IMG/VR virus record: IMGVR_UViG_2579778919_000006
Coordinates: 1 to 42,066 of that record
Strand: one strand, 5' to 3'
From: a virus
Lineage: Duplodnaviria > Heunggongvirae > Uroviricota > Caudoviricetes
Length of the DNA: 42,066 nt
Part shown: positions 27,595-37,248 of the stretch, in pieces
How the letters are laid out: each line of letters opens with the position of its first letter
How positions within the stretch are numbered: position 1 is the first letter of the stretch
Notes under the pieces: model-generated
Seen by the model: the letters and a program-made list of their open reading frames with translations, nothing else
Database searches by the model: none
Told to the model about the DNA's origin: nothing
Translations under genes and position numbers: made by a program

Positions 27595-27743
27595 AATGAG
27601 TTGACTATTTGTAAGGTAGGTGTGAGTAAGACTTATGCTCAGAGGTGAAGCTGTATCGGCTGATTCACTATCGGTCCAGGAGAACCACCGGGCATTCAGT
27701 TACTTCCCACAACTCAAAGCGTAGCAGCAGTTTGCAAAACCAT

Positions 27744-27771
27744 AAAAAAAGGCCTGCGTTTAATGGCAGGC
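27744..27771 (-). terminator. intrinsic terminator in the late leader
   Basis: 6-bp stem gcctgc/gcaggc followed on the minus strand by T7. Confidence 0.55.
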
Positions 27772-27988
27772 TCTCAAGGAATTTGAAACTTGTATTGTAG
27801 TTGTCATGGTGCCGGGTGCCTCCCGGTGACTCTACTCCAGCCAGCAAAGTCGCGCGCATACCTGCAGATAGCAGTTGGCTGGAACGCCCTTTCGCTTAGA
27901 AAGGATTCACCACAGAAATAAATTACGCCGAACTTATTCCTGCAGTCAATGAGATTAGCCATTGCTTCCTGATGGTTGTCTTACAAAT

Positions 27989-28208: not shown

Positions 28209-28283
<75 letters not shown>

Positions 28284-28286
28284 ATA

Positions 28287-28362
<76 letters not shown>

Positions 28363-28364
28363 AG

Positions 28365-28438
28365 TGGTCCGCCACCGGAGCCTCGAACCCCGTACCACAA
28401 CACCTGGGTTGCCGCTCTTCCCGATGAGCTAGTGGCGG
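28365..28438 (-). tRNA. tRNA-like element, anticodon unresolved (possible degenerate tRNA)
   Basis: acceptor, D and T arms fold (T-loop TTCGAGG, 3' ACCA) but the best anticodon-arm pairing GCAAC/GTTGT leaves a 6-nt loop. Confidence 0.45.
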
Positions 28439-28440
28439 TC

Positions 28441-28517
28441 TGGTGGCCCTTGCTGGACTTGAACCAGCGACCGGGCGATTATGAGTCGCACGCTCTAACC
28501 AACTGAGCTAAAGGGCC
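28441..28517 (-). tRNA. tRNA with CAU anticodon (Met or Ile2-lysidine type)
   Basis: reverse complement GGCCCTTTAGCTCAGTTGGTTAGAGC...; anticodon loop CTCATAA; T-arm GGTTCAAGTCC; 3' CCA. Confidence 0.75.
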
Positions 28518-30847: not shown

Positions 30848-32719
30848 TTAATACCTCGTTGCGTTGGTGGCTTCCCACTCAATATCAAGTTCACTTTGCT
30901 GTTTGCCGGCCAAGTAATTGAAGGGCCCTTTATCACCCTCGATAAACTGGTGTGAGCGGGAATCAAAGTTAGCCCCTATGTCTCCGATCCAGCCTTCCCC
31001 TTCACGTTGTTTCAACAGGCGGATCATCGAAGCGGGCATTTGGATAGCAGTCTGTTCGTCCTTATCAAGGCTCTCATACCCCATTCTTTCAGCTTTGCGC
31101 TGCGCCAGTTCGCGCGGGATATTACGCCAGACCGCCATAACGTTGTCGGGCATGTCAGTTAAAGCGCCAGTGCCTTTAACATCCATTTTCCCTGTTGGTG
31201 CAGCTTCGTTTGTTTTTCTGGCATGCGTTACCAGCAGAACATGGCAGTTGTGCTCGTTTTTAAAGTCGCAGAGGGTATCGATAAATTCTTTTTGTCCACC
31301 GTAGTCCTCCTCATCGAGTCCACATTTTGCCAAGTTGTCGATAACGAAAAGATCGATTCCATAGCGGCGTCTGGCATAGGCAAATATTTCCAACAGTCGA
31401 TCGGCCTTGGCTGTTCCGGTGAGTTTGAACACCCAAAGACGATCAGAAAACCACTCGTTAGTCATGATGATTTCAGTACGTTCTGGGTTTTTTCTACAAA
31501 TGGTTTGCCGGGTAAGACGAGCCAACATTTTCCCAGGCTTAAGCTCCAGCGAGGCAATGCATACCCGGACTCCCTGGCTCATGGCATTGACGGCGATATG
31601 TCCCACCAGCTCGGTTTTTCCGTGGCCGTTTACTCCGTTAACCAGCGTCAGCTCTCCGGCGCGGAATTTGAAATTACTGTTCAGCGAATCCCACGGGCTG
31701 GAAAATAATCCAACATCTCGATGCTCGAATGCATCCAGTGTTTCCTGAAGGAGATCACCCGCAGAGCAGAGTTCATCAGGGTCGAAGAATTTAGCGGTCC
31801 CCAAGTAGTGCCAGATTTCATCCTCGCTCATCCCGGAGGTCAGACATTCATTGATATCTTTGTGCGGCAGCTCTACCAGGCGGCAACGATGCTCCCCCAG
31901 GCGACGAGCAATTTCTTTTGCGGCTTCGCGCCCTACATCATCGTTATCGAGGCTTAACCAAATTTCTTCGAATCGGTCGAGGTTGTGATACTCGTATTCG
32001 ATCCATTGCTGTTTGGCCCCTTTTCCACCGCCGAACGGTACCGATAGAGCACTGATACCGAATTGCGAGTAGGTCATACAGTCAATCTCTCCTTCGCAAA
32101 GCACAACAGCGCGAGCTTTCGCGTCCATAGCCTGCCAGCCAAACAGACATGGCTCGCAATCAGCTTCAGCCATGATCAACTTTTTGCCATTTGGTCGTTC
32201 AGTGCCGATTCGCTTTACCTGCAAAAGCTCACCGTTGCGAAGATACGGAAACGCCACTGCCGGAATTTCGCGGTTTTCATCGTGGTACCAGACGACTGCG
32301 TCCGAAACACGGAATTGATCAGCTGTCTCTCGGGTGATGCCACGGGAAGAGAGGTAGTCGTAGCAATGGCTCGCCTTTTTAACGCCTTTTTTGGTTGGCC
32401 GTGAGAAGGTTTTTTTCTTCGCCTCGAAGTGGTTATCGTCGTCCTTCAGCCCAAGGAACTCTTTCGCTTCCCGCATAGCGTCGTGCAGCTGGCAGTTACG
32501 CACCAGCACCCAAAGATCAAGCAGGTCTCCGCTGTCGCCGCTTGCAAAATCTGCCCAAGTCTTCTTACCACCGAGATTAATTTTCAGGCTCTTACCGGCA
32601 TCACCATTGGTATTACCAGCGCACCACTCCTTGCCCTCGAGGTGTCCTCGTGGAAGCAGGTATTTCGCAACTCTTTCGGCGTTGTCCCACAATTTTTCAG
32701 ATAACTCAGCAGGGGTCAT
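30848..32719 (-). CDS. bifunctional DNA primase / DnaB-like helicase
   Basis: Toprim-like central region (LCEGEIDCMTY, DNDDVGREAA) and C-terminal P-loop NTPase (GVNGHGKT, LFVIDNL); start re-set to the ATG with GGAG Shine-Dalgarno. Confidence 0.8.
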   Translation of the reverse strand: MTPAELSEKLWDNAERVAKYLLPRGHLEGKEWCAGNTNGDAGKSLKINLGGKKTWADFASGDSGDLLDLWVLVRNCQLHDAMREAKEFLGLKDDDNHFEAKKKTFSRPTKKGVKKASHCYDYLSSRGITRETADQFRVSDAVVWYHDENREIPAVAFPYLRNGELLQVKRIGTERPNGKKLIMAEADCEPCLFGWQAMDAKARAVVLCEGEIDCMTYSQFGISALSVPFGGGKGAKQQWIEYEYHNLDRFEEIWLSLDNDDVGREAAKEIARRLGEHRCRLVELPHKDINECLTSGMSEDEIWHYLGTAKFFDPDELCSAGDLLQETLDAFEHRDVGLFSSPWDSLNSNFKFRAGELTLVNGVNGHGKTELVGHIAVNAMSQGVRVCIASLELKPGKMLARLTRQTICRKNPERTEIIMTNEWFSDRLWVFKLTGTAKADRLLEIFAYARRRYGIDLFVIDNLAKCGLDEEDYGGQKEFIDTLCDFKNEHNCHVLLVTHARKTNEAAPTGKMDVKGTGALTDMPDNVMAVWRNIPRELAQRKAERMGYESLDKDEQTAIQMPASMIRLLKQREGEGWIGDIGANFDSRSHQFIEGDKGPFNYLAGKQQSELDIEWEATNATRY

Positions 32720-32822
32720 CACACACTCCGTAAATCGAATTTTATAAAGCACATAGTCACGAATTCCTCACGCAAAAAGCCGCGGTTATAGCCAGCAACC
32801 AGTAGACGTTTGAGGATTCTTT

Positions 32823-33833
32823 TCATGGGCGGTTAGCTCCGCGCTTCATGCGGTCAATGGCTGCCTGGCTGATAAATACCTCAGCCGAACCGTCACTTGG
32901 TTTTGCGAACCAGGAAGCACCTGTCCCACCGATGGCGTTTGCGCTTGCGGATATCTGAGGAGCTCCATTTGGTTTTTCATCGTTCCAGCGCTCTCCGTTC
33001 AGGTATGACGCTGGCAGGAGTTTGTCGAACCCCATTTGCTGTGTTTTCACCCGGAGGCTGATATCTTCAGCCAGCATAACGGCGAAGTTCTCAGGCGTAC
33101 CTCGGTTCGCTTTTTTCCAGTCGCGATATTTGGTCCTGAACGCTGACTTAGCCTTGACCTTGGCATCCTTCCTCAGTCCAGCCCCCCAAAAAATATTTTC
33201 GAAAGCGGCATCGACTGGATCTGGGCTCTCAGCATCATCAGATTTTGAATCAGGTTTCCCCTGTGCAGGTTGACCTTTCAACTCGTCAGGTTTATCGCCA
33301 TCGGTCCGATTCGAATCGGACAAATTAGTTTTATTCCTTTCCTCTTCCCTTCCCTTCCTTTCCTTTCCGTCAGTGAGTTCTTCGTGAGCATTCAGTGAGT
33401 CCTCAGTGTTAGCTCCATTGCTTGTATGTGAATCATGAGTTTGTTTTTCATCATTACTCACTGAGCCATCCATGTAATTCGGTGCTGGTTTCCGTGAGTT
33501 ATCAGCAACGTCTTCAGGAGTAGGTATTGTTGTTGCGGATGGTCGGTTAATTTTCTGGTGTTTAGAAAAACCATCAATGTGAATATATTCAACACCACTC
33601 ACTGAATACTCACTGATTAACCCAGCCTGGCTAAGTTCTTTAATTAACGGCTCGCAGTCGATCATGTCCGCAGGGAAAATCTGCATCTTGATACGCTTCG
33701 GGGAGCGCACCAGATTGCCTTTGTCGTCGGCAAAATTGAACATGCCGATAAACATTAGGCGCGCCTCAAATGAGCACTCGACAATCTTCTCATCAGTCCA
33801 GAACTCAGGTTTAATTGTTCTAATGCGTGCCAT
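32823..33833 (-). CDS. putative replication initiator (O-position protein)
   Basis: position upstream of primase-helicase; N-terminal MARIRTIKPEFW domain; acidic low-complexity middle whose DNA carries iteron-like repeats. Confidence 0.45.
   Translation of the reverse strand: MARIRTIKPEFWTDEKIVECSFEARLMFIGMFNFADDKGNLVRSPKRIKMQIFPADMIDCEPLIKELSQAGLISEYSVSGVEYIHIDGFSKHQKINRPSATTIPTPEDVADNSRKPAPNYMDGSVSNDEKQTHDSHTSNGANTEDSLNAHEELTDGKERKGREEERNKTNLSDSNRTDGDKPDELKGQPAQGKPDSKSDDAESPDPVDAAFENIFWGAGLRKDAKVKAKSAFRTKYRDWKKANRGTPENFAVMLAEDISLRVKTQQMGFDKLLPASYLNGERWNDEKPNGAPQISASANAIGGTGASWFAKPSDGSAEVFISQAAIDRMKRGANRP
33335..33616. repeat. iteron-like repeats (ACTCACTGA / TCAGTGAGT) plus a polypyrimidine tract; candidate replication origin
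   Basis: copies at about 33369, 33391, 33456, 33596 and 33608; CT-rich tract at 33335-33367; all inside the putative initiator gene, as lambda ori lies inside O. Confidence 0.5.
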
Positions 33834-34187
33834 CTATCAGCCCTCCATCAGCACAAATAACCTCACTTACATCAGGCTTTGACTGGAATTTGGCATCAAC
33901 TAGGGAAGCCTTGCGCGCATTGCAGGAATCACACAAACATTGCATGTTGTCTGGGTGGTGAGCACCACCGTTACGTCGCGATACAATGTGATCTGCGACC
34001 AATTTAATGCGGTCTTGACTGCCACAATGACGGCATTTGAAACCGTCGCGCCAAAGAACAAATTCGCGTAGTGCGCGATGGCAAGGTACGCGCATTTTCA
34101 GGCGACCTTTGATCGTGGGCACTTTCCATTTGTTGCCGTTCTGGTCTAACCAAAACTCAGACGGCACCTTTCCGTAATCACGCATTT
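33820..34187 (-). CDS. HNH endonuclease
   Basis: CRHCGS...DHIVSRRNGGAHHPDNMQCLCDSCNARK motif; start re-set to the ATG for MRDYGKV. Confidence 0.75.
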
Positions 34188-34399
34188 TGCGCCTCCGAGA
34201 CCTTCGTAAAATATTGTTGGAACTTCCAGACAGGCTGCATACATTCATGCGGATAATTCTGCCTGGTGAAGTACACCTGCTGTTTATCCCGATTCCAGCC
34301 GGTGACATGCACAATCACACCGCGCGGATCGCGATAATCGATATCCAATGGCTTAACTTGGTTTTCGGTAGTGATTGAGTGCGACATATCACACCTCAC
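34178..34399 (-). CDS. hypothetical small protein in the cII position
   Basis: 73 aa; ATGA start/stop overlap with the Cro-like gene. Confidence 0.4.
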   Translation of the reverse strand: MRCDMSHSITTENQVKPLDIDYRDPRGVIVHVTGWNRDKQQVYFTRQNYPHECMQPVWKFQQYFTKVSEAQNA

Positions 34400-34623
34400 A
34401 CCTCATTTCCCGGATGAGGGAATGTGTCTGGAAGGTCTGGGCGGATCTGGTAGGCTTTAACTTCGCCACCAGTAGCTTTAACAATGGACATGACATGATC
34501 AGCCTTAACCCGGCTACCATTAAGCCAGCGAAAAACAGCTGGTTGAGTAACCCCACAAGCCCTTGCTAATGCAGCTTGTCCGCCGAGAATATCGATAGCT
34601 CTCTTGACATGTTGATTGATCAT
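34396..34623 (-). CDS. cro: Cro-like HTH regulator
   Basis: 75 aa from the ATG for MINQHVKRAIDILGGQAALARACGVTQPAVFRWL; divergent from the cI-like gene. Confidence 0.7.
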   Translation of the reverse strand: MINQHVKRAIDILGGQAALARACGVTQPAVFRWLNGSRVKADHVMSIVKATGGEVKAYQIRPDLPDTFPHPGNEV

Positions 34624-34732
34624 AAAAATACCAAAAGTTATTGAACACAAGGAAAGAGTATAACCTTGAATAACTTTATGCAATAACTTATCGTATTTGC
34701 CACTTAATAACTTTTTGTATAGGCTTATTGGT
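34624..34732. promoter_or_regulatory. immunity-region operator/promoter with repeated AATAACTT motifs
   Basis: three direct copies of AATAACTT (34669, 34682, 34706) and one inverted copy (34636-34643) between divergent cro-like and cI-like starts. Confidence 0.5.
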
Positions 34733-35431
34733 ATGAACACATTCTCAGATCGTCTTCAAAAAGCGATGGTTGACGCTGGCCTTACACAGGCAGAATTAGC
34801 GATGAAAGTTGGGGTTTCGCAACCAGCTATCTGGCGCCTTGTTGCAGGCAAAACCAACACAACACGTAAGCTGGTTGAGATTGCGAATGCGCTGGGTGTA
34901 AGCCCTGAATGGCTTTCTACCGGGAAAAATCATGTACCCCACAGACAGGGGTATGTGATAGAGACTATGCCCGACAGGGAAGTAAAGGATAACGCTGGCA
35001 TATTCAGGGTCGAAGTTCTTGACCTTTCGGTGAGTGCTGGGCCTGGCACGTTTATGCTTTCAGAATATGTTGAGGTTTTACATGCTATAGAGTTCACTAC
35101 TGAACACGCAAAATCCCTTTTTGGAAATCGTAGTGAAGATGTCGTAAAAGTAATGACAGTCAATGGCGACAGCATGGCCAGCACATTCAATTCCGGTGAT
35201 CGTGTCTTCGTTGACATTTCCGTCCGACACTTTCTAACAGATGGTGTATATGTCTTTGTTTTTGGTAAAACATTTCACCTAAAACGACTCCAGATGCAGG
35301 GAAACAGGCTAGCAGTGTTATCGGATAACCCAGCATATGAGAAATGGTATATCACGGAAGAAAACCAGGATGACCTTTACGTGATGGGTAAAGCCATAAT
35401 GCACGAATCAATCAATTACAATAGGCTCTAA
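34733..35431 (+). CDS. cI: CI-like repressor (HTH plus S24 LexA-like peptidase domain)
   Basis: N-terminal HTH (LTQAELAMKVGVSQPAIWRL), Ala-Gly in the linker (SAGPG), GDSM serine motif and KR lysine motif. Confidence 0.85.
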   Translation: MNTFSDRLQKAMVDAGLTQAELAMKVGVSQPAIWRLVAGKTNTTRKLVEIANALGVSPEWLSTGKNHVPHRQGYVIETMPDREVKDNAGIFRVEVLDLSVSAGPGTFMLSEYVEVLHAIEFTTEHAKSLFGNRSEDVVKVMTVNGDSMASTFNSGDRVFVDISVRHFLTDGVYVFVFGKTFHLKRLQMQGNRLAVLSDNPAYEKWYITEENQDDLYVMGKAIMHESINYNRL

Positions 35432-35452: not shown

Positions 35453-35478
35453 AAGCCGCTGAAAAGCGGCTTTTTCTT
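35453..35478 (+). terminator. intrinsic terminator after cI
   Basis: perfect 7-bp stem agccgct-gaaa-agcggct followed by TTTTTCTTT. Confidence 0.7.
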
Positions 35479-35559
35479 TATCAATAGCTGTATACATGCA
35501 GTAAAACAATAAAATTTAATCAGAAAAATCAATGCATTAAACCAAATTGCAAAATAAAA

Positions 35560-35632: not shown

Positions 35633-36064
35633 ATGAATACTCAAATCACCGTAGCCAAAACCATCGGCAAAAGAATATTAAATCAAAGATCTTCGCTTCG
35701 ACTCTCTCAGGATTTTTTGGCTGATCATCTTGGTTTAACAACCGAAACCATTAACAACTGGGAAACGGAAAAAACAGTTCCGTTTGCTGACCAGTTAATC
35801 CAATTGGCTAACATTCTTCATTCTGATGTTCTGTGGCTCATTTCAGGCAACGAGCAGTGCGGTGAATTTACAGAACCAACAAGTATTATAACGTCCAATC
35901 AACTTAACTCATGGTCTGCTGATATTGGCAATTGCAGAATGGCTTTATCTAACGCTATGGATTGCATGCCTCCGGAATTGTCGGCTATCGGTACACTAAC
36001 TATCGTTTATGAAAAATTAGACGACTTGCAAGAAACCATCTGCAAGCAAGCCGACAAAATTTAA
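35633..36064 (+). CDS. XRE-family HTH protein
   Basis: HTH segment LSQDFLADHLGLTTETINNWE; C-terminal 60 aa unassigned and contains Cys-Gly (NEQCGEF); by eye A+T-rich. Confidence 0.6.
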   Translation: MNTQITVAKTIGKRILNQRSSLRLSQDFLADHLGLTTETINNWETEKTVPFADQLIQLANILHSDVLWLISGNEQCGEFTEPTSIITSNQLNSWSADIGNCRMALSNAMDCMPPELSAIGTLTIVYEKLDDLQETICKQADKI

Positions 36065-36848: not shown

Positions 36849-37248
36849 ATTAATCGAGACATATCGCCGCCGAATTTTAAAGGCAGCGTTATTACGCCAC
36901 CAGCGTAAAACGGGCAGTAACTGCCTTGTTATTAAGCTCAATAAAGGCGGTATTAACACGGTCGAGTTAACAGAGATTCTTCTCGATGGATTATTACGAA
37001 AATTCGAAAGGCTCGCGATCAGTGAGTACGGAAATGTCGAAGGTGTAAAAGCTATTAAGGGGATTTACAGCAGCTCTGTTGATGTTAATGGCAGCGGTGA
37101 ATTCCTCACAAATAGCGGGAAGGAGTTAATCGACGAGCTCATTTCTGAGCTGGTTGAGTTCGTCAAAAAACAAAAAGTGGAGGCTCCGAAAACGGAGGGT
37201 CATGAAATGGAGGAATCTGATGGCTCTTACAGCGATACGAATTCCTGA
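36841..37248 (+). CDS. hypothetical protein
   Basis: 135-aa ORF; overlapping start with the previous gene; no family recognised. Confidence 0.4.
   Translation: MDKLIETYRRRILKAALLRHQRKTGSNCLVIKLNKGGINTVELTEILLDGLLRKFERLAISEYGNVEGVKAIKGIYSSSVDVNGSGEFLTNSGKELIDELISELVEFVKKQKVEAPKTEGHEMEESDGSYSDTNS

Follow-up and report, generated by a model that had tools for sequence, protein, structure and literature searches.

What could keep a cluster of short repeats inside a protein-coding gene of a prophage? The question is raised by a stretch of 42,066 nucleotides (nt) of caudoviral DNA, IMG/VR record IMGVR_UViG_2579778919_000006, which as a whole is called the window here and in which a 9-mer, ACTCACTGA, recurs within the gene for a putative replication initiator (positions 32823 to 33833, minus strand; gene nt are counted from its start codon). 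Very probably the repeats serve as binding sites in a prophage replication origin located inside this initiator gene, and the locus as a whole is likely to be a vegetative origin embedded mid-way in the gene of its own initiator, an arrangement of the lambda O and pSK41 type. An earlier note on this DNA, written from the sequence alone, had proposed a candidate origin here, and the proposal is now supported by selection acting at the DNA level, conservation of position among relatives, helical phasing of the repeats, their co-variation with one domain of the initiator, and the winged-helix fold predicted for that domain. The principle is a textbook one; the instance occurs in a protein family that is annotated by neither Pfam nor NCBIfam.

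The repeats in the initiator gene

Exact copies of ACTCACTGA start at 33370 (minus strand), 33392 (minus), 33456 (plus), 33597 (plus) and 33608 (plus), so that five copies fall within 247 base pairs (bp; 33370 to 33616), just as the earlier note had it (five in about 250 bp); a sixth stands far away at 37019 (minus). Six copies were observed over the whole window against 0.23 expected, and none of 100 dinucleotide-preserving shuffles gave six. A chance origin of the cluster is refuted. A further copy with one mismatch lies at 33491 (minus). The check by repeat finder that the note had recommended was run, and Tandem Repeats Finder independently reports an array of period 11 at 33370 to 33408 and one of period 5 at 33334 to 33368. 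Alignment of relatives indicates that the true repeat unit is an 11-bp near-palindrome, ACTCA[C/G]TGA[G/A]T, of which the initiator gene holds eight copies when degenerate ones are included. These units, hereafter iterons, and the elements that follow them are laid out as follows.

32823-33833, minus strand: initiator gene from the open reading frame (ORF) list, 336 amino acids, holding all repeat copies of the cluster and the tract; the protein plan is a predicted winged-helix N-terminal domain (about amino acids 1 to 105), a disordered linker (about 117 to 203) and a helical C-terminal domain
33597-33618 (gene nt 216-237): iteron pair, two abutting 11-mers, ACTCACTGAAT and ACTCACTGATT on the plus strand; on the coding strand AATCAGTGAGT and ATTCAGTGAGT, coding for amino acids 72 to 79 in the N-terminal domain
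33489-33499 (gene nt 335), minus strand: degenerate iteron with one mismatch, ACTCACGGAAA on the coding strand, with the next copy 33 bp away
33456-33466 (gene nt 368): single iteron, ACTCACTGAGC on the plus strand, on the coding strand GCTCAGTGAGT, within the linker coding region
33368-33411 (gene nt 423-466), minus strand: four tandem 11-mers, on the coding strand TAACACTGAGG, ACTCACTGAAT, GCTCACGAAGA and ACTCACTGACG
33334-33368, 35 nt: polypyrimidine run on the plus strand, polypurine GGAAAGGAAAGGAAGGGAAGGGAAGAGGAAAGGAA on the coding strand, a candidate unwinding or helicase-entry site
33322-33333, 12 bp: short AT-rich stretch, AAATTAGTTTTA, separating the purine tract from the palindrome
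33304-33321, 18 bp: perfect palindrome GTCCGATTCGAATCGGAC, found by inverted-repeat search, part of a module common with Fraca-type phages
32823-33333, minus strand: coding region of the distal linker and C-terminal domain, a partner-specific module travelling with the primase-helicase

Repeats and tract thus lie wholly inside the coding sequence of the protein at the map position of lambda O, as had been claimed. The pyrimidine tract reported beside the repeats is present, but its length is 35 nt rather than 33. The final unit of the tandem array runs directly into GGAAAGGAAAGGAAGGGAAGGGAAGAGGAAAGGAA. Spacings between units are 11, 11, 11, 11, 33, 45 (from 33456 to 33411) and 108 bp, and 66 bp (6 x 11) separate the single iteron at 33456 from the copy at 33390. 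Elsewhere in the window, promoter-near regions included, no iteron match above chance level was found. The distant 9-mer was considered as a second site and rejected: at 37017 to 37027 only 9 of the 11 positions of the full unit agree, about 9.5 such matches are expected by chance, and it is probably not a site of this kind.

Are the repeats a property of the DNA or of the protein that it encodes? They might be mere peptide repetition or low complexity of the linker, produced by protein-level selection or slippage and without any function in cis. The linker is indeed disordered and compositionally biased, and peptide fragments such as DSLN.H..LTDGKEGKG recur in relatives. However, the reading-frame phases of the unit starts in the window are 2, 1, 1, 1, 2, 1, 0 and 2, the 9-mer core can be read on either strand, and the peptides that the units encode (ISEY, SVS, DSLN, ELTD) are unrelated. 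Units in all three frames with differing peptides mean that the repeat exists at the DNA level and not at the protein level. The earlier note took the repeats to encode an acidic linker, which is right in so far as the other copies lie in the disordered linker, but the pair at 33597 to 33618 encodes amino acids 72 to 79 of the folded N-terminal domain.

Relatives with the same N-terminal domain carry the comparison further. When IMG/VR was scanned with residues 1 to 109, 80 loci matched at 71 to 99% identity, of which 56 are non-redundant over the first 520 nt (N-terminal domain identity, 72 to 99%). The iteron pair occupies gene nt 216 to 237 in 55 of 57 non-redundant relatives and nt 219 to 240, 3 nt downstream, in the other two, and 2 to 9 further units follow between nt 320 and 470. 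Matches to the iteron at 9 or more of 11 positions occur in every one of the 56 loci, with 3 to 11 per locus; their density is 18.5 per kb in gene nt 200 to 480 versus 0.19 per kb in the other 269 kb, a 97-fold enrichment. Adjacent copies are separated by a multiple of 11 bp in 165 of 242 cases, and the family's iterons start in phase 2 (145 times), phase 1 (134) and phase 0 (11).

Synonymous sites give the sharpest result. In 55 gap-free aligned sequences the third-position entropy is 0.00 bits at the four-fold codons 73 (Leu), 74 (Thr/Ser), 77 (Ser) and 78 (Val), all within the iteron pair, while most other four-fold codons of the N-terminal domain vary freely at about 1.1 to 1.9 bits (Val18, 1.17; Ser44, 1.75; Leu63, 1.62; Thr13, 1.52). 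This invariance in a folded domain directly indicates that the nucleotides themselves are under purifying selection. Beyond the domain, the linker peptide of the relatives is hypervariable in length and sequence, with conservation only in the segments for which the repeats and the purine tract code. In the relatives, ACTCACTGACGG stands at or close to the end of the array, and a purine-rich tract lies just downstream; this 12-mer directly abuts the tract in about half of them, and in the others a one-mismatch variant and/or an (ACGGAT)n spacer stands between. In 42 of 57 genes, the corresponding place holds 23 nt or more of uninterrupted purines. Within these tracts 53 of 54 Arg codons are AGG, compared with 7% of Arg codons outside them, a comparison that is partly circular, since purine runs can hold only AGR codons, and that does show the cost of keeping the run. 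On the reading-frame and synonymous-site results, the peptide explanation is effectively refuted, and we regard it as hardly credible.

The protein itself cannot be named from curated libraries, since searches of Pfam and NCBIfam with the whole initiator and with its isolated domains gave no match (Pfam cut-offs, E <= 0.01 for the whole initiator and E <= 10 for the isolated N-terminal domain). It matches PHROG families of 'replication initiation protein' (phrog_1408, E = 1.4e-41), and its nearest database proteins are entries named 'hypothetical protein' from Enterobacter. A near-identity DNA search with 33300 to 33900 against complete E. coli genomes found no match, so the module of N-terminal domain and iterons is absent from the genomes searched. 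An AlphaFold2 model built from a 51-sequence alignment has a predicted local distance difference test score of about 90 at amino acids 20 to 90 and below 50 at 117 to 203. Helices at 22-34, 45-52 and 60-69 followed by a hairpin at 73-78/81-86 make the N-terminal domain a predicted winged helix, with DNA binding as its predicted activity; a helical C-terminal domain is modelled at 206 to 278 with moderate confidence. The iteron pair encodes amino acids 72 to 79, a strand of the beta-hairpin, or 'wing', of this model, and the DNA-binding domain would therefore be partly encoded by its own presumed binding site.

Exchange of N-terminal and C-terminal modules

Does the N-terminal domain travel with the repeats, and the C-terminal domain with the replication partner? 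Two neighbouring genes on the same strand bear on this question.

30848-32752, minus strand: primase-helicase (Toprim plus DnaB-like/AAA_25), the presumed replicative helicase recruited to the candidate origin
33820-34185, minus strand: HNH endonuclease gene, 121 amino acids from the ATG at 34185 (Pfam HNH)

The primase-helicase matches Pfam Toprim_2, AAA_25 and DnaB_C and phrog_239, 'DNA primase/helicase' (E = 4.6e-147). Phages Fraca, LMessi and CharmingMan share 85 to 97% nucleotide identity with the window over 32700 to 33334, where the similarity stops exactly at the end of the purine tract; it resumes at 34133 or 34165, and the roughly 800 bp between differ. Fraca-type initiators, which come from the same phage group (Hendrixvirinae), are like that of the window in the C-terminal half (84 to 95% amino acid identity), as are the primase-helicases (90 to 100%), the AT-rich stretch and the 18-bp palindrome. 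BLASTP detects no similarity between window-type and Fraca-type N-terminal domains (E = 0.26), and we therefore treat them as different domains and not as variants. The Fraca-type repeat differs too: it is GAAGGGGCT in place of ACTCACTGA. Copies of it stand in pairs with 11-bp spacing, one pair at gene nt 184/195, its two members in different frames, and one at 451/462, and the second pair is followed by a purine-rich tract and then by the shared AT-rich stretch and palindrome. The layout is that of the window, with one repeat pair in the coding region of the N-terminal domain and a second set of repeats just before a purine-rich tract.

The reverse exchange is seen in Klebsiella phage Kp4865-4, which has a window-type N-terminal domain and ACTCA-type repeats but a DnaT-like C-terminal domain (Pfam DnaT, E = 6e-28). 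Dozens of IMG/VR loci likewise combine the window-type N-terminal domain and ACTCA-type repeats with other C-termini, often DnaT-like. In 24 of 24 loci the window-type C-terminal domain is accompanied by the primase-helicase, whatever the N-terminal domain, whereas 65 loci that share the N-terminal domain but have other C-termini lack both. From the swaps and these counts together, we conclude that the repeats are coupled to the N-terminal domain, and the helicase to the C-terminal domain. A DnaT-like identity for the window initiator itself was considered and rejected: the family profile hits DnaT in the PDB, but the window C-terminal domain alone has no hit in the PDB or Pfam, and the DnaT matches of the profile stem from other members of the alignment.

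The segment that is replaced relative to the Fraca-type phages has breakpoints at 33334/33335 and 34132/34133. It appears as a cassette of about 800 bp in place of the Fraca-type N-terminal domain and iterons, and contains the HNH body, the purine tract and a new set of N-terminal domain and iterons. Over its first 17 codons (MRDYGKVPSEFW...) the HNH gene shows homology to the beginning of the Fraca-type initiator gene, and since Fraca-type homology resumes at 34133, these codons derive from a Fraca-type initiator and the N-terminus of the HNH protein is chimeric. The 394-position profile phrog_5718 ('HNH endonuclease') matches the N-terminal domain of the initiator at positions 1 to 120 and the HNH protein (33820 to 34314) at 107 to 183, so that fusions of winged-helix and HNH proteins probably exist in other phages. 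The HNH gene accompanies all 16 loci with the closest N-terminal domains, and it may for this reason mobilise the origin-specificity module.

The same facts open another explanation, namely, that the HNH endonuclease recognises the repeats or homes to them, or that they act as recombination signals of a mobile cassette of HNH gene and N-terminal domain. The segment 33335 to 34132 holds both the HNH gene and the repeats, the gene is constant among the closest relatives, and a single profile covers both proteins. Yet the same repeats lie at the same positions in about 40 non-redundant loci without an HNH homologue (L021-L084), on which ground target sites of the endonuclease are unlikely. The Fraca-type genes also have the analogous repeat layout, with no HNH gene upstream of the initiator where the window has one, and multiple helically phased copies are typical of initiator sites and not of endonuclease targets. 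We give this explanation a very small probability.

The presumed opening site and the comparison with lambda and pSK41

If the repeats are origin sites, how would the origin work? By analogy with lambda and pSK41, we propose that the N-terminal winged-helix domain would bind the 11-bp dyad-symmetric iterons, that is, the pair at 33597 to 33618, the copies at 33489 and 33456 and the four units at 33368 to 33411. With most iterons one helical turn apart, the bound initiators would lie on one face of the DNA and could build a nucleoprotein complex like the lambda O-some. The DNA beyond the last iteron (33304 to 33368), composed of the 35-nt purine/pyrimidine tract, the 12-bp AT-rich stretch and the 18-bp palindrome, would then open, and the C-terminal domain would bring in the phage's own primase-helicase (30848 to 32752). 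We infer the binding of the repeats by the N-terminal domain, the start of replication at this place, the opening site and the contact between C-terminal domain and helicase, and among the steps of the mechanism the opening site is the weakest.

The tract at 33334 to 33368 is the longest homopurine/homopyrimidine run of the window, with a runner-up of 16 nt. On the coding strand GGAAAGGAAAGGAAGGGAAGGGAAGAGGAAAGGAA is followed by TAAAACTAATTT and then by the palindrome GTCCGATTCGAATCGGAC, and the 30 bp from 33322 onward rank at the 98th percentile of the window for duplex instability. The palindrome is kept in Fraca, LMessi and CharmingMan, where it falls in the 32700 to 33334 block of homology; it is part of the coding sequence and encodes SDSNRT. 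In ori-lambda a palindrome lies to the right of the AT-rich region, and the location of the present palindrome after the biased tract recalls that arrangement. Promoter and terminator scans of the region found nothing beyond shuffle expectation; the terminator scan scores the palindrome as terminator-like on the non-coding strand only. An Rfam search of the region found no family, so structured RNA is not the explanation for the repeats.

Several points weigh against an origin at this locus. The tract at 33334 to 33368 is not AT-rich (GC content, 0.49 versus 0.51 for the window), its duplex instability is unremarkable (73rd percentile within the window), and the least stable local DNA is found at 33545 to 33595, in the coding region of the N-terminal domain between the iteron pair and the linker copies. 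Iterons and N-terminal domain travel together in part simply because the iterons are located within or beside the coding sequence of that domain. The literature searched holds no report of binding or of origin firing for this initiator family, and full-text literature on the motif, the phage group and lambdoid origins with primase-helicases gave nothing specific, the key review (Weigel & Seitz 2006) being outside its scope. Co-inheritance alone is weaker than it appears, and more weight belongs to the invariant synonymous sites and to the conservation of the repeats within hypervariable linkers. The tract was considered as a thermodynamic, classical AT-rich unwinding element and rejected in this form, its stability not being unusual; with 49% GC and no thermodynamic instability, its role in unwinding can only be inferred.

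These same features could be taken to favor a regulatory function. Plasmid iteron-binding initiators commonly autoregulate, and the repeats could be sites at which the initiator or another regulator acts in autoregulation, roadblocking or handcuffing, with the true origin elsewhere, for example in the AT-rich intergenic region at about 35.5 to 36.1 kb. The least stable stretches of the window, at about 35470 to 35550 and at 36053, are away from the repeats, and the tract beside the repeats lacks the AT bias. Against this, an operator 216 to 466 nt downstream of the start codon would be unusual for autoregulation, and near promoters, as in the rest of the window, iteron matches do not exceed chance. 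The layout, with its N-terminal domain, phased repeats, strand-biased tract and partner-specific C-terminal domain, is that of proven intragenic origins, and the purine tract follows the last repeat even where the C-terminal domain is a different one. Overall, a purely regulatory role is unlikely, and an intragenic origin is the reading that we retain.

Lambda provides the closest model for such an origin. Gene O of lambda has the ori in its middle, made up of imperfectly palindromic 19-bp iterons and an AT-rich tract, and the O protein also binds single-stranded DNA (PMC7466680); the earlier note had likewise described iterons and a biased tract within O. As in lambda, the Stx phages and other lambdoid O/ori pairs, the candidate origin is placed mid-way in the initiator gene at the boundary between an origin-binding N-terminal and a partner-binding C-terminal part. 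Further likenesses to lambda are several dyad-symmetric repeats with a compositionally special tract on one side, the map position downstream of cro, and the exchange of the N-terminal part and repeats as a specificity module while the C-terminal part stays with the gene for helicase delivery. The differences are equally clear. Repeat units measure 11 bp (22 bp for a pair) here and 19 bp in lambda, and the window, unlike lambda, has one pair about 140 to 250 bp from the main array, in the coding sequence of the N-terminal domain. The adjacent tract is a 35-nt homopurine run of 49% GC and not an AT-rich one of about 40 bp, and the partner is a phage primase-helicase instead of a P-type loader of host DnaB. 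The initiator has no sequence similarity to lambda O and no match to Pfam Phage_rep_O even at E = 10.

The second model is pSK41, whose origin is central within rep and whose winged-helix Rep N-terminal domain binds the Rep boxes; the origin-encoded linker is dispensable there, and the Rep C-terminal domain binds the primase DnaG (PMC5703833). Does the initiator belong to the same RepA_N family? No Pfam match to RepA_N (PF06970; Rep of pSK41 and pTZ2162) was found at E <= 10, and for this reason membership is not concluded. The structural score against RepA_N proteins (PDB 4pt7, 4pql and 4pta) does not stand out from that against other winged-helix proteins. The hosts also differ, since the window family comprises Enterobacteriaceae prophages and RepA_N is found mainly on Firmicutes plasmids. 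Moreover, RepA_N iterons converge on a poly-A tract, whereas in the window ACTCA-N-TGAGT units are followed by a GGAAG-type purine tract.

That non-AT-rich homopurine tract is the sole element of the locus that departs from the textbook layout of an origin. It is maintained despite the rare AGG codons, and it travels with the module of N-terminal domain and iterons across differing helicase-recruiting C-terminal domains. One idea is that the GGAAG-type tract marks a distinct mode of origin opening or strand choice across a Pfam-unannotated superfamily of winged-helix initiators, which spans enterobacterial to Pseudomonas, Vibrio, Myxococcus and actinobacterial phages. Strand-specific capture of an all-pyrimidine or all-purine single strand, or an H-DNA-like structure under supercoiling, would then be possibilities. 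We hold this idea to be doubtful, though worth stating. In one relative (L016, IMGVR_UViG_2877195390_000005) the GGAAG-type tract at gene nt ~466 to 505 is 5 nt longer, the initiator ORF is shortened to 221 amino acids and the C-terminal domain goes on in another frame. This frameshift is either a sequencing error or the mark of a slippage-prone tract able to switch the initiator off.

Distant homologues, implications and gene neighbourhood

How far does the arrangement reach beyond the enterobacterial relatives? A tblastn search of phage genomes finds the N-terminal domain at 26 to 48% identity in 462 records, including phages of Mycobacterium, Gordonia, Pseudomonas, Ralstonia, Vibrio and Bordetella, Mx8 and others, and several of these homologues are annotated as 'replication initiation protein' or 'RepA-like replication initiator'. 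Short tandem arrays stand just after the N-terminal domain (nt ~380 to 470) in five of six distant homologues (35 to 48% identity) examined, with periods of 7 to 8 bp. They are of CTGATTC type in LESphi2 (L086, Pseudomonas), a Bordetella phage (L087) and a Vibrio phage (L090), and consist of GGATCAG x3 in Tyrion (L085) and GGAACAG x5 in Marinomonas phage P12026 (L089). P12026 also has TTCACTGAAT...ATCACTGCAGGAAAGG, reminiscent of the last iterons and purine tract of the window. The arrays of the distant homologues are probably equivalent origin repeats with a different periodicity, and their recurrence at the domain boundary points to a deep feature of this initiator family.

The locus offers a precise candidate origin for a group of temperate phages of Enterobacter, Klebsiella and Escherichia in which 'hypothetical protein' is the only annotation of the initiator, and the prediction specifies the motif, the number and phasing of the sites, the module boundaries and the partner helicase. 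The lambda rule, by which the origin is internal to the initiator gene, the N-terminal domain can be exchanged together with its sites as a specificity cassette and the C-terminal domain is linked to the helicase, would extend to an unrelated protein family that uses a primase-helicase. Uses can be seen in the annotation of prophage origins, in predicting replication incompatibility or exclusion between co-resident prophages, and in the design of phage-derived replicons.

Around the initiator gene, Cro/YdaS-like and HNH genes lie upstream and the Toprim/DnaB-like primase-helicase lies downstream on the same strand, with a divergent S24 cI-type repressor, and in Fraca the same gene series runs on to a Q antiterminator and a holin; in view of this order, 'O position' is a fair label for the initiator gene. 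The Cro/YdaS-like ORF (34396 to 34740, minus strand) and the cI-type ORF (34697 to 35431, plus strand) overlap by 44 nt at their starts as listed. Cro homology begins only at residue 39 to 45 of the former, and its true start codon is therefore probably internal. The operator region is probably at about 34600 to 34700. Downstream of the Q-like region, on the minus strand at 28209 to 28517 and 27740 to 27946, there are a cluster of four tRNAs (Gly-TCC, Thr-TGT, one with an aberrant anticodon loop, and Met-CAT) and an adjoining match to the small RNA STnc100, which scores 53 bits against a gathering score of 47.

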